From the IMG/VR virus record IMGVR_UViG_2877958089_000002: a stretch of 31,395 bases of DNA. One strand, written 5' to 3'. The first letter of the stretch is position 1. Each line of letters opens with the position of its first letter. This DNA comes from a virus. Lineage: Duplodnaviria; Heunggongvirae; Uroviricota; Caudoviricetes. The translations under genes were made by a program, and so were the position numbers. Below, in pieces: positions 646 to 10,752 of this stretch. The notes under the pieces are model-generated. The model had not been told where the DNA came from. It made no database searches and saw only the letters and a program-made list of their open reading frames with translations.

Positions 646-1272
646 TTAGAGTTCGTATTGAACTCCTTTGACTACACCAATGATAAGGCAATTACCATTG
701 ATAGGGATGTTGGGATACCGAGGATTTAATGGCACTAAAAACTTTTGAGGGCCATCGATGACTAATTTTTTTACTGTAGCTTCGTTTGTTCCATCAAGTC
801 GAGCGATGACTATTTTTCCATGACGAGGTTCTGCATCTGGATCTACAATCACTGTTGCGCCTTCTGGTATTGTTGGGAGGCCATTAGGGTTAGTCATGGA
901 GTCACCTTTAACCTCTAATGCAAATGAGTTATCACCAATCTTTAATGATGTATCTACCCACTTGTCCACTTCACTAAACACTTCTGCTGCCCTGCACTCA
1001 GTAAACTGCCCAGCCTGAACCCACGATATTACAGGAACTCTGCGCATGTTTGTGACGAGTTTGCCTTCAAACTCAGCACCATAAAGAATGTAATCTATTG
1101 ACGTATTGAAGAACTTCGCTAATTTCGAAAGTGCCTCCCCACCAGGGGTATTGATGTCTTTCTCCCAGTACCCCACAGCAACGTCGCTTACTCCACAAAA
1201 TTTACCCAATTCTTTCTGGGACGTTCCGGTAACTCTTCTCAGAGCTTTTATACGCTGACCAACCGTTTCCAT
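646..1272 (-). CDS. CI-like prophage repressor (N-terminal HTH, C-terminal LexA/S24 self-cleaving peptidase domain)
   Basis: 208-aa product. N-terminal HTH (QKELGKFCGVSDVAVGYWE). C-terminal S24 signature (LEVKGDSM...TVIVDPDAEPRHGKIVIARL...VKKL) with Ser/Lys dyad. Divergent from a Cro-like gene. Confidence 0.9.
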   Translation of the reverse strand: METVGQRIKALRRVTGTSQKELGKFCGVSDVAVGYWEKDINTPGGEALSKLAKFFNTSIDYILYGAEFEGKLVTNMRRVPVISWVQAGQFTECRAAEVFSEVDKWVDTSLKIGDNSFALEVKGDSMTNPNGLPTIPEGATVIVDPDAEPRHGKIVIARLDGTNEATVKKLVIDGPQKFLVPLNPRYPNIPINGNCLIIGVVKGVQYEL

Positions 1273-2159: not shown

Positions 2160-2494
2160 ACAGTTTAACAACACACTACCGTCGCTCGCAACTGATTGCG
2201 CTTCCTGTACCGGGTGGAAAAGCGAAGGTGGAGTATTGCTATGCAGTTAATGTACCAGGTGACAGGGAAATTGTAACCCACAGCTTTGCTGAGTGGGCTG
2301 TGGGTGATTTCAACCGGCAGAAGGAGACAGTCCTTTGCGACAAGTTAACCGCTGGTTCAAAGATCACTACGGAGTGCCCGTCAGAGTCATTCGTTGGGAG
2401 CCGGAAACACAACGAGTTATCTACCTCCGCGAAGGCTATGAGCATGAGTGCTTCAGCCCGCTCGAACAGTTTCGTCGTAAATTCAGGGAAATAG
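2156..2494 (+). CDS. Hypothetical early protein (112 aa), YmfM-like by position and size
   Basis: ATGA start/stop overlap with the upstream gene suggests translational coupling. C-terminal 50 aa are Ser-rich low complexity while the overlapping frame looks more protein-like (see findings). Confidence 0.4.
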
Positions 2495-2503
2495 AGGTCG
2501 GTC

Positions 2504-3445
2504 ATGAGCACTAAATTAACCGGCTATGTATGGGATGGTTGCGCTGCATCAGGCATGAAATTATCCAGCGTGGCAATTATGGCCCGCCTGGCTGATTTCA
2601 GTAATGACGAAGGTGTGTGCTGGCCATCAATTGAAACTATTGCCCGTCAGATTGGCGCGGGGATGAGTACCGTCAGGACGGCTATCGCACGGCTGGAAGC
2701 AGAAGGCTGGTTAACGCGTAAGGCGCGTCGCCAGGGTAACCGCAATGCGTCGAATGTTTATCAGCTTAACGTTGCGAAGCTTCAGGCAGCGGCATTTTCT
2801 CAACTGTCAGATTCTGACCCGTCAAAATCTGACGCATCAAAATCTGACCCGTCAAAATTTGATGCGTCGAAATCTGGCAAAAAAGCGGGTTTTCACCCGT
2901 CAGAATCTGGCGGGGATCCGTCAGTAAAATCAAAACATGATCCGTCAGATAAAAAACCTTCTCGTCCGGACGCTTCGCAACCGGACACGCAGACGGATGA
3001 ACAGGATTTTTTAACTCGCCATCCTGATGCGGTTGTATTCAGCCCTAAAAAGCGCCAGTGGGGAACGCAGGATGATTTGACCTGCGCACAGTGGCTCTGG
3101 AAAAAAATCATCGCCCTGTACGAGCAAGCCGCCGAATGTGACGGCGAGGTGGTTCGTCCCAAAGAACCGAACTGGACAGCCTGGGCAAACGAAATTCGCC
3201 TGATGTGTGTGCAGGATGGTCGTACTCACAAACAAATCTGCGAGATGTACAGCCGCGTCAGCCGCGATCCGTTCTGGTGCCGTAACGTGCTCAGCCCGTC
3301 GAAGTTGCGGGAAAAATGGGATGAGCTTTCCCTGCGCTTATCACCGTCCGTCAGCACGTACACCGAAAAACGCGAAGACCCGTACTTCAAATCCAGTTAC
3401 GACAACGTGGACTACAGCCAGATCCCGGCAGGATTCAGGGGGTGA
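2504..3445 (+). CDS. Phage replication initiation protein (N-terminal winged-helix DNA-binding domain, C-terminal replisome-organizer/DnaT-like region)
   Basis: 313-aa product. N-terminus (IARQIGAGMSTVRTAIARLEAEGWL) is a typical replication-initiator wHTH. Central region is encoded by tandem 15-bp repeats. Sits at the lambda O position. Confidence 0.65.
   Translation: MSTKLTGYVWDGCAASGMKLSSVAIMARLADFSNDEGVCWPSIETIARQIGAGMSTVRTAIARLEAEGWLTRKARRQGNRNASNVYQLNVAKLQAAAFSQLSDSDPSKSDASKSDPSKFDASKSGKKAGFHPSESGGDPSVKSKHDPSDKKPSRPDASQPDTQTDEQDFLTRHPDAVVFSPKKRQWGTQDDLTCAQWLWKKIIALYEQAAECDGEVVRPKEPNWTAWANEIRLMCVQDGRTHKQICEMYSRVSRDPFWCRNVLSPSKLREKWDELSLRLSPSVSTYTEKREDPYFKSSYDNVDYSQIPAGFRG
2807..2950 (+). 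repeat. Tandem ~15-bp direct repeats (iteron-like) inside the replication gene; candidate ori
   Basis: Repeats of CCGTCAAAATCTGAC / GCATCAAAATCTGAC / CCGTCAAAATTTGAT / GCGTCGAAATCTGGC with degenerate copies further on (CCGTCAGAATCTGG, CCGTCAGTAAAATC, CCGTCAGATAAAAAAC). They encode the DPSKSD/ASKSD peptide repeats. Confidence 0.6.
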
Positions 3446-3447
3446 TC

Positions 3448-3936
3448 ATGAGTCTGTTAAATGACGTTCAGAAATTCATTGAAGCCCATCCGGGGTGTAC
3501 TTCCGGAGACATTGCGGATGCTTTTGCAGGTTACTCACGGCAGCGCGTTCTGCAGTCTGCAAGCAAGTTACGTCAGAGTGGGCGTGTGGCTCACCGTTGT
3601 GAAGGAGATACACGCAGACATTTCCCGCGCCTGACTGAGAGAGCGCAGGAGCCGGAACCACAACCAGTTCGTGAAACCAGACCTGTGCGCAATTTCTATG
3701 TCGGCACTAACGATCCCCGGGTGATTTTGTGCCTGACCCGCCAGGCGGAAGAACTGGAGTCCAGGGGCTTATACCGTCGTGCTGCAACGGTGTGGATGGC
3801 GGCATTCTGTGAAAGCCACTCCCAGCCAGAACGAAACAATTTTCTGGCGCGTCGTGAGCAGTGTTTACGGAAAAGCAGCAAGCGCGCTGTATCGGGTGAT
3901 GAGTGGTATCTGTCAGGGAATTACGTGGGGGCTTAA
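3448..3936 (+). CDS. Putative transcriptional regulator (winged-helix N-terminus; PerC/ANR-like C-terminal region)
   Basis: Frame opens with GTG at 3442; ATG at 3448 has a GGGGG Shine-Dalgarno about 6 nt upstream. C-terminal segment AEELESRGLYRRAATVWMAAF resembles PerC-family regulators. From memory only. Confidence 0.4.
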   Translation: MSLLNDVQKFIEAHPGCTSGDIADAFAGYSRQRVLQSASKLRQSGRVAHRCEGDTRRHFPRLTERAQEPEPQPVRETRPVRNFYVGTNDPRVILCLTRQAEELESRGLYRRAATVWMAAFCESHSQPERNNFLARREQCLRKSSKRAVSGDEWYLSGNYVGA

Positions 3937-4589
3937 TGAGTAATAAATATTGCCAGGCGCTGGTGGAACTACGGAACAAACCAGCCCATGAACTGAAGGA
4001 AGTGGGCGATCAGTGGCGCACGCCGGATAACATTTTCTGGGGAATTAACACTCTGTTTGGCCCGTTTGTTCTGGATCTTTTTACTGACGGTGATAACGCC
4101 AAATGTGCCGCGTATTACACGGCGGAAGACAACGCGCTGGCGCATGACTGGTCAGAACGTCTTGCGGAGCTTAAAGGTGCTGCCTTTGGTAATCCCCCGT
4201 ACAGCCGCGCCAGTCAGCATGAGGGGCAATACATCACCGGCATGCGTTACATCATGAAGCATGCCAGTGCCATGCGTGATAAAGGCGGGCGCTATGTTTT
4301 CCTGATCAAAGCTGCCACCAGCGAAGTGTGGTGGCCGGAAGATGCAGATCATATTGCTTTTATTCGCGGGCGTATTGGTTTTGAACTGCCTGTCTGGTTT
4401 ATCCCGAAAGACGAGAAGCAGGTGCCGACAGGCGCTTTCTTCGCTGGTGCTATTGCTGTTTTCGATAAGACCTGGAAGGGATCGGCAATCAGCTACATCG
4501 GGCGCGATGAACTTGAGGCATGTGGTGAGGCGTTTCTGGCGCAGGTTCGCCAGCAGGCGGAAAAACTGGTCAGGGAGATGGCGGCATGA
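3936..4589 (+). CDS. Phage DNA N6-adenine methyltransferase (Dam-like phage family)
   Basis: NPPY catalytic motif (AAFGNPPYS). TAATG overlap with the upstream gene. ATG at 3936 is residue 12 of the track ORF. Confidence 0.8.
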   Translation: MSNKYCQALVELRNKPAHELKEVGDQWRTPDNIFWGINTLFGPFVLDLFTDGDNAKCAAYYTAEDNALAHDWSERLAELKGAAFGNPPYSRASQHEGQYITGMRYIMKHASAMRDKGGRYVFLIKAATSEVWWPEDADHIAFIRGRIGFELPVWFIPKDEKQVPTGAFFAGAIAVFDKTWKGSAISYIGRDELEACGEAFLAQVRQQAEKLVREMAA

Positions 4590-4912
4590 CGACGTTAACT
4601 CAATGCCAGCAGCAGGTGCTGGATATGCTGATTTCTTATCAGAAAGAACGTGGTTTCCCGCCAACCAATCAGGAGGTGGCAACCATGCTGGGATACCGTT
4701 CAGTGAATGCAGCGGTGGAGCATCTTCGCGCACTGGAGAAAAAAGGCGTCATCACGATAAAGCGTGGCGTGGCCCGGGGGATCACGCTTCATACCGCAGT
4801 GAAGGACGACGACAGCGAAGCGGTCGGTATCATCCGCGCACTGCTTGCCGGTGAGGAGAACGCCAGGTTGCGTGCAGCCCACTGGTTACATGAGAGGGGC
4901 TTGAAAGTATGA
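4586..4912 (+). CDS. LexA N-terminal DNA-binding-domain protein (no peptidase domain)
   Basis: 108-aa product. First ~70 aa align by eye to the LexA winged-helix domain (QQQVLDMLISYQKERGFPPTNQEVATMLGYRSVNAAVEHLRALEKKGVI). No S24 Ser/Lys domain follows. Confidence 0.7.
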   Translation: MTTLTQCQQQVLDMLISYQKERGFPPTNQEVATMLGYRSVNAAVEHLRALEKKGVITIKRGVARGITLHTAVKDDDSEAVGIIRALLAGEENARLRAAHWLHERGLKV

Positions 4913-5298
4913 AGTTGATCCTTCCTTTCCCGCCCAGTGTGAACACGTACTGGCGACACCCCAACAAAGGGGCGTTTGCTGGTAAGAGCCTGATAAGCGC
5001 GGCGGGGCGAAAATTCCAGAGCGCGGCGTGTGCCGCAATAGTTGAGCAGTTACGTCGTCTGCCAAAACCAACGTCGGCACCTGCTTCAGTGGAGATCGTG
5101 TTGTTTCCTCCGGATAACCGGATCCGCGATCTGGACAACTATAACAAGGCGCTGTTTGACGCCCTGACCCACGCGGGTGTGTGGGAAGACGACAGTCAGG
5201 TGAAAAGAATGCTGGTTGAGTGGGGACCGGTTATCCCGAAAGGGAAGGTCGAGATCACTATCAGTAAGTTCGAGAAAACGGCGGGTGCAGCCGCCTGA
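4909..5298 (+). CDS. rusA: RusA-family Holliday junction resolvase
   Basis: 129-aa product with the RusA signature (LPFPPSVNTYWRH...DLDNYNKALFDALTHAGVWEDDSQV). ATGA overlap with the upstream gene. Confidence 0.8.
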   Translation: MKLILPFPPSVNTYWRHPNKGAFAGKSLISAAGRKFQSAACAAIVEQLRRLPKPTSAPASVEIVLFPPDNRIRDLDNYNKALFDALTHAGVWEDDSQVKRMLVEWGPVIPKGKVEITISKFEKTAGAAA

Positions 5299-5317
5299 TT
5301 AAGAGGAGAAACGAAGT

Positions 5318-6127
5318 ATGAATAATCTGATGGTCATTGATGGTATTGAAGTTCGTCGTGATGCTTATGGGCGTTACAGTCTGAACGATCTGCATCGCGC
5401 AGCAGTAGCATCTGGTGCAAATGCCAGAACCAAGGAGCCAGGAAAGTTTCTTTCCAGCCAACAAACTGTTGAGCTTGTTCATGAATTGACCAACACCCAG
5501 AATTTGGGTGTTGACCCGGTGAGTGTGATTCATGGGGGAAATGAACGGGGAACGTATGTCTGCAAGGAACTGGTGTATGCCTATGCAATGTGGATCAGCC
5601 CGTCATTCCATCTGAAGGTGATCCGTACTTTCGACATGGTAACCAGCGCACCGGAAAAATTATCCGGACAGGCTGCTGACAAGATGCAGGCTGGTGTGAT
5701 TCTGCTGGACTTTATGCGCCGGGAATTAAACCTGTCTAACTCTTCAGTGCTTGGTGCCTGTCAGAAACTCCAGGAGGCTGTTGGCTTACCGAATCTGGCA
5801 CCGCGCTATGCCATTGATGCTCCTGCTGATGCACACGATGGCTCAAGTCGCCCGACACTGTCACTGAGTGCACTGCTGAAACAGTATGGTATCCGCCTGA
5901 CGGCTAATCAGGCATATCACCAGATGGTGAAACTGGGGATCGTCGAGCAGCGCGAACGATACAGCCGTACCGCGATTAACAACATCAAAAAATTCTGGTC
6001 GCTGACAGCGAAAGGCTGCATGTTCGGCAAGAACATCACCAGTCCCGCAAATCCGCGCGAGACGCAGCCGCATTTCTTCGAATCCCGATTCCCTGAGCTG
6101 TTAAAGCTGCTCGATACCGTTCATTGA
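5318..6127 (+). CDS. KilA-N domain protein
   Basis: N-terminal KilA-N-like sequence (YSLNDLHRAA...KELVYAYAMWISPSFHLKVIRTF). C-terminal half unassigned. Confidence 0.65.
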   Translation: MNNLMVIDGIEVRRDAYGRYSLNDLHRAAVASGANARTKEPGKFLSSQQTVELVHELTNTQNLGVDPVSVIHGGNERGTYVCKELVYAYAMWISPSFHLKVIRTFDMVTSAPEKLSGQAADKMQAGVILLDFMRRELNLSNSSVLGACQKLQEAVGLPNLAPRYAIDAPADAHDGSSRPTLSLSALLKQYGIRLTANQAYHQMVKLGIVEQRERYSRTAINNIKKFWSLTAKGCMFGKNITSPANPRETQPHFFESRFPELLKLLDTVH

Positions 6128-6128
6128 G

Positions 6129-7124
6129 GTGACCGTGAGAGCACTACTGACCCCTGAAATAGCCCCGCGTATGGGGATCGTATTGTTCAGACCAGGTTCA
6201 GAGCTGATGCCCCTGTTTATGCAGGGGCGTGTACTGCTGGAGCCTGAGCCGGAACGTTATTCATCTTTCGCCAGTGGTGCCGTTCCCGCGGCATCACAAC
6301 CGCTGGCGGATGATCCTGCTGTTCGGGCCGTGTTCCGCAATGAGGCAGTGATCCGTCGTGCTGGTGGCGTGGAATGTCTTGAAAGCTGGTTACTTCGTGA
6401 AAAAGGCTGCCAGTGGCCTCATTCCGACTGGCACAGCGAGAACATGACCACAATGCGACACGCTCCGGGCGCAATCCGTCTGTGCTGGCACTGTGATAAC
6501 CAGCTGCGCGATCAGTTCACGGAACGGCTGGAATCAATGGCAACGGATAACTGTGCCCGCTGGGTGTTGTCTGTTGTGCGTCGGGATCTCGGTTTTGATG
6601 ATAGTCACGTTGTGACAATGCCGGAACTGTGCTGGTGGCTGGTTCGTAATGACCTGGCGGATGCCTTACCGGAAAGTGCAGCCCGTAAGGCACTGAGATT
6701 ACCGAAGCCTGTTGTGTCGTCTGTCACCCGGGAAAGTGACCTTGTGCCTTCGGTTCCTGCCACCAGCATCATCCAGGATAAAGCGAAAAATGTGCTGGCG
6801 CTGAAAGTGGATCCTGAGTCGCCGGAGTCTTTTATGTTACGCCCAAAACGTCGCCGCTGGGTCAATGAAAAGTACACGCGCTGGGTTAAGACACTGCCGT
6901 GTGCATGTTGTGGAAAGCCTGCTGATGATCCCCACCACCTGATAGGCCACGGTCAGGGGGGAATGGGTACAAAAGCGCATGACCTCTTTGTGTTGCCTTT
7001 GTGCAGAAAGCATCACGACGAGCTGCATGCGGATACCGTGGCATTTGAAGATAAGTATGGCTCCCAGCTGGAGCTGATATTTCGTTTTATCGATCGTGCG
7101 CTGGCAACTGGCGTGCTGGCCTGA
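6129..7124 (+). CDS. Prophage protein, DUF968-like, with C-terminal Cys/His (HNH-like) motif
   Basis: GTG start. C-terminal CACCGKP...PHHLIGHG...CRKHHDELH metal-binding motif. Family name recalled from E. coli prophage annotations, not verified. Confidence 0.4.
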   Translation: MTVRALLTPEIAPRMGIVLFRPGSELMPLFMQGRVLLEPEPERYSSFASGAVPAASQPLADDPAVRAVFRNEAVIRRAGGVECLESWLLREKGCQWPHSDWHSENMTTMRHAPGAIRLCWHCDNQLRDQFTERLESMATDNCARWVLSVVRRDLGFDDSHVVTMPELCWWLVRNDLADALPESAARKALRLPKPVVSSVTRESDLVPSVPATSIIQDKAKNVLALKVDPESPESFMLRPKRRRWVNEKYTRWVKTLPCACCGKPADDPHHLIGHGQGGMGTKAHDLFVLPLCRKHHDELHADTVAFEDKYGSQLELIFRFIDRALATGVLA

Positions 7125-7141
7125 TTTTGTGGAGAAAGTTG

Positions 7142-7507
7142 ATGCGTGATATTCAGATGGTTCTTGAGCGTTGGGGGGCATGGGCGGCGAGTGACAGTTC
7201 AGGAGTAGACTATTCGCCTATAGCTGCTGGGTTTAAGGGACTTCTTCCCTATACAAGCAAAACACGTCAGGCTTGTTCAGATAGTGATGCATTAATTATT
7301 GAAGGTTGTCTTGCTCGTCTAAAGCAAAAAAGGCCAGACGAACATTCGCTTCTTGTTGCCCATTACCTATACGGTATCTCTAAAAGAAAGCTCGCCAAAG
7401 CTCGTAAAAAGGATGAGAAACTAATACGCATTGAGATACAGATGGCTGAGGGGTTTATTGAAGGCTGTCTCTCAATGCTTGATCTTTGTTTGGAAATGGA
7501 CCAATAG
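7142..7507 (+). CDS. Late-gene antiterminator Q (small Q type, as in DLP12-type prophages)
   Basis: MRDIQMVLERWGAWAA... N-terminus and AEGFIEGCLSMLDLCLEMD C-terminus are typical of small Q antiterminators. Frame opens at TTG 7127; ATG 7142 has a GGAGA Shine-Dalgarno 6 nt upstream. Confidence 0.75.
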   Translation: MRDIQMVLERWGAWAASDSSGVDYSPIAAGFKGLLPYTSKTRQACSDSDALIIEGCLARLKQKRPDEHSLLVAHYLYGISKRKLAKARKKDEKLIRIEIQMAEGFIEGCLSMLDLCLEMDQ

Positions 7508-7530: not shown

Positions 7531-7953
7531 TCAGCTTTGCGGATCGGCAGTTTCTGATGGTGTAATGTTACGCGCAGATGTTTCAAGTATAGATTCCCTT
7601 CCGATTGATACCAAAATTTCGATTGTTCTTGCTTTAGCCTGCATCAATGTTGATTTTATTTCAGGACTTAAGTGGTCAGATCGTAACTGCTTCTCAATCT
7701 CAGCCAAATCACGCTTGCATTTTGCTCTTTTGGCTGCGTCTTCTGGAGATTCGAAACCATGCCTCGAAATGAACCAATTCATGACGTAAGTTAAAGTTGC
7801 CGCAACACCCGGTACTAATGCGTAGGCTACAGTTCGCCACACGCTATTAGGGTCGGTTAAAATCGCGCTAACAAGAACACTTAAAATTGCTCCCCAACCA
7901 CCAGTTGAAAGGGTAGCTTTTCCTGTGCTTAGACCTTTAGTTTGAGAATTCAT
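7531..7953 (-). CDS. Small membrane protein (two predicted TM helices plus charged helical C-terminal tail); third gene of the antisense cassette
   Basis: 140-aa product. Hydrophobic segments GGWGAILSVLVSAIL and WRTVAYALVPGVAATLTYVMNWFI, then a K/R/E-rich helical tail. Start overlaps the upstream gene's stop. AT-rich. Confidence 0.6.
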   Translation of the reverse strand: MNSQTKGLSTGKATLSTGGWGAILSVLVSAILTDPNSVWRTVAYALVPGVAATLTYVMNWFISRHGFESPEDAAKRAKCKRDLAEIEKQLRSDHLSPEIKSTLMQAKARTIEILVSIGRESILETSARNITPSETADPQS

Positions 7954-8219
7954 TTTCGTTTTGAATTCTCCGCAATTGCCTCATCAATGAGGGTTGTTAG
8001 CATTTTTCCCTTTTTACTTGGAACTTTTATTACTAGCGTTTTGGTCACTCCGGAATCTTCATCGTGATATCGGAATTCGAAGACTTTTGTAGGGAATAGT
8101 CGACGCCAAAGCAAGGCTGACGCTGAATAGCAAAAACGACTAAAGGCAGGGATGATCATTATCACCCCTATCCAGAAGATCAGTTGTGCTATCTGCATGT
8201 TTAGTGTCACTTTTGTCAA
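7950..8219 (-). CDS. Small membrane protein (one N-terminal TM helix); second gene of the antisense cassette
   Basis: 89-aa product. TM segment IAQLIFWIGVIMIIPAF. Overlapping stop/start with both neighbours indicates an operon. Confidence 0.55.
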   Translation of the reverse strand: MTKVTLNMQIAQLIFWIGVIMIIPAFSRFCYSASALLWRRLFPTKVFEFRYHDEDSGVTKTLVIKVPSKKGKMLTTLIDEAIAENSKRK

Positions 8220-9085
8220 GCCTCAGCAGGGCGTTTTCGTTTTACTTTGGTTATAGCATACTTGGTTGTGGCATTTCGCGCAGTGAAAGTTTTTATAGTT
8301 TTTAGCTCAACAACAAACAAATCTTCTTTTGTAAAACTGATGATTCCGTTTTGAACTTGGTGTATAAACAACTGATCTTCAAAGGTAACAGCATGCTCTT
8401 CGCCTAAATAATCGATTCTCCAACCCTTTGTACCCTCGAAGTTGATCTGTACGAATCTAACATTGACTTCTTCTACAGACTCTTCTTTTTCAAGTAGTGT
8501 GCCTCTAGGCAGCGGTTTGATCTCTTCGGTTTCACTTCCTTCAAGACGAACGACTTCTTCGCCTTCATCATTCAGCACCTTAAATACTGCTCCTTGTTTG
8601 CCGTCTAATGGTGCACGAACTACATTCACAAGGGCATCACGGACTTCTGGATCTGTTACTAACTTAGCCACTGAGTCATGGCAAACAATTTCTTCCCCTT
8701 CAAGCTCAAGAACAGATTCTTCTGTTCCTGCCCGTTTTGTTACCGAAATTACTTTCTTGCTGCCCAGTTGGCGGATTAGTGATAATGCTGGAGCTCCAAT
8801 AGTAGCCCCGGCTATCCCTGTTAGGCCAATCACTTTTGCTACGTCGACGGCATGAGGAACAAGCTCCATCATCGTATAGGATACGCCGAGTGATCCCGCT
8901 TCAGCTGGATTAGTAACCATTAACTTAACGGTTTGTTGGCCGTCATTAAGTCTTTTATCAGCTGCTGATATTAAATCTGCCATCGAACCTATGGAAATGC
9001 TTAATGTTTTGGCATCAATTTTATGCTGTGCTAATTCATTATCCTCTGCATCGTAGAAGATCTGAAAAGAAGTTGTTTTAGTCAC
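8216..9085 (-). CDS. Hypothetical protein (289 aa), first gene of the antisense cassette; no recognisable family
   Basis: GTG start, with an in-frame stop 60 nt upstream and no ATG between. Gly-rich hydrophobic segment (GLTGIAGATIGAPALSL) and acidic C-terminal half. AT-rich relative to flanks. Confidence 0.55.
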   Translation of the reverse strand: MTKTTSFQIFYDAEDNELAQHKIDAKTLSISIGSMADLISAADKRLNDGQQTVKLMVTNPAEAGSLGVSYTMMELVPHAVDVAKVIGLTGIAGATIGAPALSLIRQLGSKKVISVTKRAGTEESVLELEGEEIVCHDSVAKLVTDPEVRDALVNVVRAPLDGKQGAVFKVLNDEGEEVVRLEGSETEEIKPLPRGTLLEKEESVEEVNVRFVQINFEGTKGWRIDYLGEEHAVTFEDQLFIHQVQNGIISFTKEDLFVVELKTIKTFTARNATTKYAITKVKRKRPAEA

Positions 9086-9206
9086 TCTTTGCTCGCTATG
9101 TCTTGATTTTTTTCCACAAAATACCTTTTTTTGGTGTAAAAAACATTATCGCGGTCCGCAAAAATTGCGTTACTGTGTTAAGAGTGATTACTTCGTCACA
9201 CAGCTT

Positions 9207-9233
9207 AAACCCGCCGTCGAGCGGGTTTTTTTA
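9207..9233 (+). terminator. Intrinsic terminator, plus strand
   Basis: AAACCCGC-cgtcga-GCGGGTTT stem-loop followed by a 7-T run. Lies between the antisense cassette and the small wHTH gene. Confidence 0.6.
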
Positions 9234-9355
9234 TACCTGTAAACCTGGTGCAGTACGGTAAACACGCTGGTGGTCGTGAATACTGACTTTTTATCTTGCT
9301 GGCTTTTTAGACAAGAGTTATTGGTATGTCATGTTAACCATGAAGGTAAAAAGAC

Positions 9356-9550
9356 ATGCTAAAACAGCAAGATATGACAGAAACGGCGAAAGTTGTTTTT
9401 AATGAATTAAACGGCAAACCGGCAACAGTCGGGGAGATAGCACAAAACACATACCTTTCACGCGAACGCTGTCAGTTAATACTGACCCAGCTGGTTATGG
9501 CGGGGCTGGCAGATTACCAGTTCGGCTGTTACAGACGCCTTCAGCAATGA
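9356..9550 (+). CDS. Small putative DNA-binding protein (64 aa) upstream of the methyltransferase
   Basis: ATG with AAGG about 9 nt upstream. Sequence ATVGEIAQNTYLSRERCQLILTQLVMAGLA suggests a helix-turn-helix. Confidence 0.4.
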   Translation: MLKQQDMTETAKVVFNELNGKPATVGEIAQNTYLSRERCQLILTQLVMAGLADYQFGCYRRLQQ

Positions 9551-9699
9551 AGGGCTTTTAATTTGTGAAAATGGGCGGCTGGTGGGTGTTGGTAGCACCT
9601 GCCAGCCATTCGCTCATGCTTACTGGTCACAAGCGAACCATGGCCCACTGCTTTAGCGCAAAAGCAGAGTGAGCCTACCAGAGTTACGCTTACTGATCC

Positions 9700-10752
9700 A
9701 TGAAAAATACTGTAAAAATAAACAGTGTTGATTTAATCAACGCTGATTGCCTGCATTTTATTCAGTCCCTGCCTGATGACTCCATTGATCTGATTGTTAC
9801 CGATCCGCCGTACTTCAAAGTGAAGCCCAACGGCTGGGACAATCAGTGGAAAGGGGACGAAGATTACCTGAAGTGGCTGGACCACTGTCTGGCCCAGTTC
9901 TGGCGGGTACTGAAACCAGCCGGAAGCCTTTACCTGTTCTGTGGACATCGCCTGGCATCTGATATCGAGATCATGATGCGTGAACGTTTCAACGTTCTTA
10001 ACCATATCATCTGGGCGAAGCCGTCCGGACGATGGAACGGGTGTAATAAAGAAAGCCTGCGGGCATATTTCCCCGCTACAGAGCGCGTTCTGTTTGCTGA
10101 ACATTACCAGGGGCCATATCGCGGCAAAAGTGACGATTATGCGGCAAAAGAAAGGGAACTCAAACAGCACATAATGGCACCGCTGATTTCGTATTTCAGG
10201 GATGCTCGTGCCGAACTGGGTATAACGGCAAAACAGATTGCCGAAGCCACTGGTAAGAAAAATATGGTTTCCCACTGGTTTGGTGCCAGTCAGTGGCAGT
10301 TGCCGAATGAGGCTGACTACCGGAAGTTGCAGGCACTGTTTTCCCGTATAGCGGCAGAGAAATTTCAGGAACAACAACTGGAACAACCACACCACCAGCT
10401 GGTGGCATCTTATGATTCACTGAATCGCAAATATTCTGAATTGCTGGATGAGTTTAAAACTCTCCGGCGCTATTTCTCCGTATCAGTTTCCGTGCCTTAT
10501 ACCGACGTCTGGACGTATAAACCCGTTCAGTTCTACCCGGGTAAACATCCGTGTGAGAAGCCTGCGGATATGCTCCGGCAAATAATCAGTGCCAGTAGTC
10601 GACAAGGCGATCTGGTTGCTGATTTCTTTATGGGATCCGGTTCCACAATAAAAGCGGCAATGGCGCTGGGGCGTCGGGCGTTAGGTGTTGAACTTGAGTC
10701 AGAGCGGTTTAATCAGACGGTGAAAGAGGTAAGTGAACTGGTGGGGAAATAA
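9700..10752 (+). CDS. Orphan DNA methyltransferase (N6-adenine/N4-cytosine MTase family, beta class)
   Basis: DPPY motif (LIVTDPPYF) near the N-terminus and AdoMet-binding motif (FFMGSGST) near the C-terminus. No adjacent restriction endonuclease. Confidence 0.85.
   Translation: MKNTVKINSVDLINADCLHFIQSLPDDSIDLIVTDPPYFKVKPNGWDNQWKGDEDYLKWLDHCLAQFWRVLKPAGSLYLFCGHRLASDIEIMMRERFNVLNHIIWAKPSGRWNGCNKESLRAYFPATERVLFAEHYQGPYRGKSDDYAAKERELKQHIMAPLISYFRDARAELGITAKQIAEATGKKNMVSHWFGASQWQLPNEADYRKLQALFSRIAAEKFQEQQLEQPHHQLVASYDSLNRKYSELLDEFKTLRRYFSVSVSVPYTDVWTYKPVQFYPGKHPCEKPADMLRQIISASSRQGDLVADFFMGSGSTIKAAMALGRRALGVELESERFNQTVKEVSELVGK

Follow-up and report, generated by a model that had tools for sequence, protein, structure and literature searches.

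The DNA analysed here, referred to below as the window, is a stretch of 31,395 nucleotides (nt) from a virus of the class Caudoviricetes (IMG/VR record IMGVR_UViG_2877958089_000002). Between positions 2504 and 3445 it encodes an O-like replication initiator, and the linker-coding part of this gene contains an array of five 13-bp palindromes (GTCARAWTYTGAC) at an exact spacing of 15 bp (2806-2878). These palindromes, termed iterons below, and the DNA that follows them are the subject of the present analysis. The features of the locus are:

2504-3445, plus strand: O-like initiator gene of 313 amino acids (aa), an open reading frame (ORF) that matches phrog_391 'replication initiation O-like' at 1.2e-135
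2504-2790, plus strand: N-terminal winged-helix domain (aa 1-95), the proposed iteron binder, defined by Pfam HTH_36 (PF13730) and a PDB match
2806-2818: iteron 1, GTCAGATTCTGAC, a perfect 6+1+6 palindrome
2821-2833: iteron 2, GTCAAAATCTGAC, exactly the family consensus
2836-2848: iteron 3, ATCAAAATCTGAC
2851-2863: iteron 4, GTCAAAATTTGAT
2866-2878: iteron 5, GTCGAAATCTGGC, weaker (11/13 to the consensus), with the 15-bp register kept
2899-2911: iteron 6, GTCAGAATCTGGC, isolated and out of register, 33 bp from unit 5
2915-2924, plus strand: box 1, GATCCGTCAG, a GAWCC(N)GTCA box with a Dam site (GATC)
2921-2958: A+T-rich stretch where the gene's GC content is lowest; candidate DNA unwinding element
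2939-2948, plus strand: box 2, GATCCGTCAG, followed by ATAAAAAAC
3029-3334, plus strand: C-terminal domain (aa 176-277), a homologue of the lambda O C-domain by BLASTP

Each unit of the array consists of the palindrome GTCA(R)A(W)T(Y)TGAC and a 2-bp spacer, and the units start at 2806, 2821, 2836, 2851 and 2866. A first-pass annotation, made from the sequence alone, had described at least four tandem copies of a 15-bp unit at 2807-2950 that lie inside an O-like gene and encode a DPSKSD/ASKSD linker. All of this was borne out by our analysis. Tandem Repeats Finder reported a period of 15 at 2813-2876 (4.3 copies, 81% matches; 88% at period 30), the gene is O-like by its phrog_391 match and its BLASTP similarity to lambda O, and the array is read in frame as SDSD-PSKSD-ASKSD-PSKFD-ASKSG. 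Of the three additional degenerate copies that had been proposed, the one at 2897-2911 is indeed a repeat unit, corresponding to iteron 6, whereas those at 2915-2929 and 2939-2953 represent a different motif, GATCCGTCAG. The 15-bp repeats are real and non-random. A search with the pattern GTCARAWTYTGAY, allowing at most one mismatch, found five sites (10 strand-hits), which in the entire 31 kb are confined to 2806-2911; 0.56 hits would be expected by chance, and none of 100 shuffles reached 10. Tandem Repeats Finder detected no further repeat cluster in the window.

Escherichia coli DEC9B (L082, locus nt 405-1331) carries a near-identical gene with exactly one 15-bp unit fewer, that is four units in register compared to five. 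Other sequence signals around the array were few. The sole Rfam match, mir-5880, lies on the palindromes (2805-2879) and was rejected as a sub-threshold artefact of palindromic repeats (30.7 bits, gathering score 97). Within 2300-3600, no sigma-70-like internal promoter was found, and the weak terminator-like hairpins on the minus strand were not clearly enriched (4, compared to 1.7 +/- 1.5 in shuffles). There is no DnaA box near the repeats, the sole TTWTNCACA match in the window being located at 9110.

The initiator is 100% identical to its counterpart in E. coli 13C1079T and 98.5% identical to that of Shigella phage SfII, where it is annotated as 'O protein family protein'. Its N-terminal region matches HTH_36 over aa 23-70 (42.9 bits against a gathering cut-off of 25, E 4.3e-11), and the Pfam matches over aa 23-82 comprise HTH_36, GntR, HTH_29 and PaaX. 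The PDB search returned a MarR-type winged-helix match for this domain, and PDB and NCBIfam gave generic winged-helix matches only. Neither Phage_rep_O, the N-domain of lambda O, nor the Rep_3 initiator domain was matched in the Pfam scan, and BLASTP against lambda O gave no significant N-terminal alignment. The C-terminal domain had no match in the PDB and NCBIfam searches. BLASTP against lambda O (NC_001416) aligned aa 176-277 to lambda aa 180-270 with an E-value of 7e-26 and 31% identity overall, and the conserved blocks include WGTxxDLTxAxW, PNxxxWANxIRLM and FWxxNVLSPxKLRxKW.

Just downstream of the repeats, the two boxes flank the most A+T-rich stretch of the gene. The exact motif GATCCGTCAG has only two occurrences in the window, at 2915 and 2939, which are 24 bp apart. 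In a profile of 2300-3600, the GC content of 0.325 at 2920-2959 was the lowest 40-nt value within the gene.

To examine how the array is conserved, one genome per species was scanned, which yielded 80 related loci. Of these, 32 from about 15 enterobacterial genera (including Pantoea, Citrobacter, Providencia, Enterobacter, Kosakonia, Buttiauxella, Yersinia, Tatumella, Rosenbergiella and Erwinia) form group A, whose N-domains share 72-86 of 93 residues with that of the window. All 32 group A loci have 4-8 units at strict 15-bp spacing in the same place of the gene, and near-consensus 13-mers numbered 173 in 6.7 kb of linker compared to 12 in 165 kb of flanking DNA. Codons were counted after the units had been defined at the protein level, so as to avoid circularity. 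Within the units, lysine was encoded by AAA in 109 of 109 cases and glutamate by GAA in 43 of 43, while the remainder of the same genes used 284 AAA to 179 AAG and 252 GAA to 195 GAG. The second serine of the unit was TCT in 117 of 144 cases (81%) and the first was TCA in 162 of 220, compared to 59 (10%) and 104, respectively, of the 589 serine codons elsewhere in these genes (Fisher p-values of 1e-11 to 1e-63). Synonymous sites in the N-domain are close to saturation, the codon identity at identical amino acids being just 28-49%. Among 24 non-redundant loci, the frequency of the major base at third positions was 0.53 in the N-domain, where 3% of third positions reached 0.9, versus 0.83-0.89 in the region of iteron 6 and the boxes. 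Iteron 6 and its flanks are nearly invariant across genera. In contrast to the fixed synonymous sites, the first codon of the unit, which forms the spacer between palindromes, varies freely (P, A, T, G, V or L). Such a combination is the mark of selection acting on the DNA, and the palindromes are thus under purifying selection as DNA and not as protein.

The type of repeat also varied with the N-terminal domain. Five loci from Erwinia, Edwardsiella and Mixta encode N-domains that are about 60% identical to that of the window, with the recognition helix SKTTVSAAIDELE instead of the window's GMSTVRTAIARLE. Their units read (Y)CAA-N3-TTGA, again in a 15-bp register, and the encoded peptides (PSNID, PPTVE, GLTVD) are quite unlike those of the window. 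A Serratia locus with 37% identity has 15-bp units of the form CTCAC-N3-GTGAC, and orf39 of phage SfV, which has a different HTH_36 N-domain, has GTGCA-N5-TKCAC repeats. Phage mEp460_4F5 combines a C-domain of the window's type, joined at the same junction, with an unrelated N-domain and GGTCAAARTGMC repeats. Conversely, the group A repeats were found with two unrelated C-domains, namely the lambda-O type of the window and Pfam Phg_2220_C. As judged from these comparisons, the repeat type tracks the N-terminal winged helix independently of the C-domain. Repeats that are under selection as DNA and that track the DNA-binding domain fit the prediction for iterons, and travelling with the N-domain of O is classical behaviour of lambdoid iterons (PMC8022706). 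The mEp460_4F5 gene (L083, locus nt 417-1397) is a natural hybrid, being near-identical in its C-domain to the window from '...SSRPDASQPDTQ' on, with the recombination junction immediately past the A+T-rich tract. It has six copies of GGTCAAARTGMC and a different triple motif, ACAGAGAWTA.

More distant HTH_36 initiators with the motif NDEGVCWPS (28-39% identical) were found in Pseudomonas, Pigmentiphaga, Achromobacter, Psychrobacter, Thorsellia and several metagenome bins. They have in-gene palindromic repeats right after the winged helix with periods of 17 and 22 bp, and nearly all of these genes have 2-4 copies of GAACC(G/A)TCA after the repeats at a spacing of 11-12 bp. The enterobacterial box reads GATCCGTCA and contains GATC, with two copies 18-24 bp apart, and outside the enterobacteria GAACC replaces GATCC. 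In the Pseudomonas genes, the first box copy is in a different reading frame from the other two. With such periods, and with boxes that fall in two reading frames, the repeats of these distant relatives cannot be peptide repeats. Individual box positions include gene nt ~343-378 in L063-L080, and boxes were also present in SfV orf39 (L084).

The box extends across the whole family, as far as Pseudomonas. In 38 enterobacterial loci, which have three different iteron types, box 1 showed conservation of 90% or more at each of the three codon positions, and the segment TTTT(C/G)ACCCGTCAGAATCTGG-N-GGGGATCCGTCAGTAA was 80-100% conserved at almost every position, irrespective of codon position; this conservation persists where the iterons differ. 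Over 67 loci, the GAWCC(N)GTCA box occurred 121 times in the 351-nt linker zones (5.1/kb), always on the coding strand, versus 18 times outside them with both strands counted (0.027/kb), which corresponds to an approximately 190-fold enrichment. The element is thus bipartite and oriented, with lineage-specific iterons followed by a family-wide box and A+T-rich segment.

The first-pass annotation had also pointed to a lambdoid layout with iterons embedded in the initiator gene, and this view is supported by the lambda record, in which four iterons are annotated at nt 349-433 of O, at the same linker position and followed by an A+T-rich tract. In the window, iterons and then an A+T-rich stretch follow each other in the direction of transcription, which is the order and polarity of ori-lambda. 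We consider it likely, on the strength of these sequence comparisons, that the prophage has its lambda-type replication origin here, within the part of the initiator gene that codes for the linker, and we infer that initiator binding, DNA melting and initiation take place at 2806-2958.

A possible course of events can be outlined as follows. After induction, rightward early transcription would lead to production of the O-like initiator. Dimers of its HTH_36 N-domain would bind the five packed palindromes and the isolated sixth, and the resulting O-some-like nucleoprotein complex would distort the DNA and open the A+T-rich segment between the GATCCGTCAG boxes (2915-2958). In lambda, the C-terminal domain of O binds P and recruits P-DnaB; here, where no P-like gene is present between the initiator gene and Q, the lambda-O-type C-domain would bring in the host helicase. 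Rightward transcription assists replication initiation in lambda, and transcription through the initiator gene may likewise assist here.

Origins with this layout have been described among lambdoid phages (PMC7466680, PMC8022706). As in the window, the middle of the initiator gene, where the linker is encoded, contains ori-lambda and, in the Stx phages 933W and P27, an origin with six iterons, and they share several dyad-symmetric iterons followed by an A+T-rich stretch in the direction of transcription (PMC7466680). Iteron number differs among relatives in the lambda/Stx group, as it does here. While the C-domains of the window initiator and lambda O are homologous, the N-domain is HTH_36 here and Phage_rep_O in lambda O. 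The iterons of the window measure 13 bp and number 5+1 with a fixed 15-bp register for the five, whereas lambda has four copies of 18-19 bp at 20-24 bp spacing, and their sequences are unrelated. The two GATC-containing boxes flanking the A+T-rich stretch are without a lambda counterpart, and the gene after the initiator is PerC-like here and P in lambda. Nevertheless, the A+T-rich right segment of ori-lambda (AGAAAAAAGAAAAGATTATTCGTCAGAGAA; L081 nt 541-570) aligns with window positions 2922-2951 at 23 of 30 positions, covering the A+T-rich stretch and box 2, and CGTCAGA occupies the same frame in both. This score was reached by 0 of 500 shuffles, with the caveat that the shuffle does not preserve A-run structure. 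The right halves of the two origins may retain a trace of common ancestry, which should be seen as a lead and not as proof.

Several observations weigh against an origin at this site. Conservation at the DNA level is proof of a function in cis, not of initiation. With 13-bp dimer sites centred every 15 bp, the packing is far tighter than in lambda (20-24 bp) and adjacent sites face nearly opposite sides of the helix, so that they may not all be occupied simultaneously. The A+T-rich stretch extends for only about 40 bp, and its A+T content is moderate. No P-, DnaC- or DnaB-like loader or helicase gene was found among the ORFs from the initiator to Q (3442-7507), and because of this the helicase-loading step of lambda has no identified counterpart here. 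The literature searched contained no experimental evidence for any member of the HTH_36 group and no origin mapping for SfII, SfIV, SfV or CPS-53 (the SfV genome paper lay outside that search), and no rep_origin feature is annotated in the database records inspected. In a collection of plasmids, no minimal replicon with this initiator as the only Rep was found, the matches being either phage-like elements or parts of large replicons that resemble prophages.

A first alternative is that the palindromes bind the initiator for autoregulation or copy control, for instance by titration, handcuffing or a transcription roadblock, and that the origin lies elsewhere in the prophage. It would suit this explanation that DNA conservation and co-variation with the N-domain show the behaviour of binding sites and not initiation, that the A+T-rich stretch is short and that no helicase loader is encoded nearby. 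However, iterons, A+T-rich segment and lambda-O-type C-domain occur in the order of ori-lambda, where initiation has been mapped (PMC7466680). Moreover, across the family a second conserved and oriented element is always found just downstream of the repeats, as would be expected of a composite origin, and the repeat search showed no other cluster in the window. We therefore regard a purely regulatory role as unlikely.

A second alternative is that slippage has generated a peptide repeat, (xSKSD)n, which forms a disordered acidic linker and lacks a function at the DNA level. The period is a multiple of 3, the segment is rich in Ser, Asp, Lys and Pro and of low complexity, and the copy number ranges from 4 to 8 across genera, with one unit fewer in DEC9B. 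Nevertheless, this explanation is refuted by the codon analysis, in which synonymous positions of the palindromes were almost fixed while the spacer codon changed its amino acid. Furthermore, relatives keep the 15-bp palindrome architecture and encode unrelated peptides, and in the distant relatives the repeats recur at 17 and 22 bp and the boxes occupy two frames. It is thus very improbable. Least probable of all is a role of the palindromes at the mRNA level, as hairpins governing how the initiator transcript is translated or how stable it is: even though the region folds far better than shuffles (single-stranded DNA fold, z = -5.2) and has the hairpin match in Rfam, that match is far below the gathering score, each unit is a self-contained dyad of protein size, the half-sites (TCA...TGA) themselves are conserved and not merely their pairing through compensatory changes, centres and spacers vary, and the repeat type tracks the DNA-binding domain.

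A replication origin thus being the preferred interpretation, its further relatives can be considered. In the Salmonella phages P22 and L, the putative origins are located in gene 18, likewise with different iteron sets inside distantly related O-like genes, and the phage L origin was inferred from sequence, as is the case here (PMC8022706). Unlike the window, P22 and L encode their own DnaB-type helicase (gp12), and their repeat units (about 20 bp in P22 and 11 bp in L) have other sequences. Closer in their N-domain are SfV orf39 and other HTH_36 'NDEGxCWPS' initiators, including the Eru5/6/8/11/13 HTH proteins of Stx phages and proteins of prophages in Pseudomonas and Burkholderiales; the Stx-phage proteins are listed in PMC8951638. 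These initiators share the N-domain family and the order of winged helix, lineage-specific palindromic repeats and 2-4 GAWCC(N)GTCA boxes, but differ in repeat sequences, periods (17, 22 and 21-24 bp) and C-domains. The iteron origins of theta plasmids with Rep_3 initiators (F, R6K, pPS10 and RK2) also combine a winged-helix initiator with an array of direct repeats beside an A+T-rich unwinding element, and these unwinding elements carry short repeated motifs. In contrast to these plasmids, the window has no Rep_3 domain and no nearby DnaA box. The Rep_3 plasmid iterons are 17-22 bp in size, in helical-repeat register and outside the rep gene, whereas those of the window are inside the initiator gene.

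The window belongs to a lambdoid prophage of the SfII/SfIV/CPS-53 type, whose early-right region makes up the first 12 kb. The genes around the initiator gene are:

646-1272, minus strand: cI repressor of the S24/LexA type
1370-1570: Cro
within 1494-2159: CII/CP76-type regulator
2156-2494: small ORF, phrog_1170 at 3.8e-70, annotated in the SfII record
2335-2514: small ORF, Pfam DUF4222 at 8.6e-19, annotated by RefSeq
3442-3936: PerC/YfdN-like protein, directly after the initiator gene
3903-4589: Dam methylase, two genes downstream of the initiator gene
between Dam and Q: LexA-DBD-like, RusA, KilA-N-like and HNH/DUF968-like ORFs
7127-7507: Q, followed by the lysis genes

The small ORFs at 2156-2494 and 2335-2514 overlap in different frames, and each has family support. 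The PerC/YfdN-like gene occupies the position of P, and its start overlaps the stop codon of the initiator gene (GTGATCATGA). Between Q and the lysis genes, the minus strand of 7531-9085 carries two ORFs of 140 aa (no PHROG match) and 289 aa (phrog_3243, function unknown), after which a second DNA methyltransferase is encoded on the plus strand (9700-10752). The arrangement of 7531-10752 looks like a moron or a defence-type insertion.

The 1.3 kb around the array match E. coli 13C1079T at 100% identity and the Shigella phages SfII and SfIV at 98.4-98.5%. Among 5426 complete E. coli genomes, 2726 have some match to it and 1572 carry at least 80% of it. In the cryptic prophage CPS-53 of E. coli K-12 (L086, also L002 and L003), the 3' two-thirds of the initiator gene survive as the pseudogene yfdO. 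This gene is truncated at its N-terminus, such that the iteron array, the boxes and the C-domain have been kept and the winged-helix domain is gone. The yfdO locus is thus an orphan origin-like site without its proposed binder. As loci L049 and L053, the first 79 codons were found elsewhere in the same genomes. The CPS-53 protein YfdR has been reported to bind DnaA (PMC4776307), and any tie between this binding and origin firing is speculation.

Iterons inside an O-like gene are textbook knowledge, and annotators routinely deduce an origin from them, as exemplified by phage L (PMC8022706). By itself, the candidate origin in the window leaves the picture of lambdoid replication unchanged. The parts that could prove to be more than a known design are the box shared across the family and the lack of a loader gene. 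No description of this origin was found in the database records inspected or in the literature searched, which was also queried for the repeat and box sequences and for HTH_36. It is conceivable, albeit rather doubtful at present, that the GAWCC(N)GTCA boxes constitute a core element of the origin which has so far escaped description and which belongs to a very large family of HTH_36 phage initiators. The boxes might serve as an unwinding element that a conserved initiator surface recognises once it is single-stranded or, alternatively, as an entry site for the host helicase. If true, this could explain replication without a P-, DnaC- or DnaB-like gene, and the enterobacterial version with GATC would add control by Dam and SeqA, maybe linked to the phage's Dam gene.

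The module is very common in E. coli; it is also present in SfII and SfIV, both serotype-converting phages of Shigella, and in relatives throughout the Enterobacterales. N-domains of this type are shared by relatives such as the HTH_36 proteins of some Shiga-toxin phages, in which replication influences the output of toxin (PMC8951638). A candidate origin with recodable sites offers a simple test system for a lambda-type origin without P, and it also provides a handle on incompatibility or exclusion between co-resident prophages. Lastly, the order of winged helix, palindromic repeats and GAWCCGTCA boxes gives a rule by which origins may be annotated in thousands of prophages.

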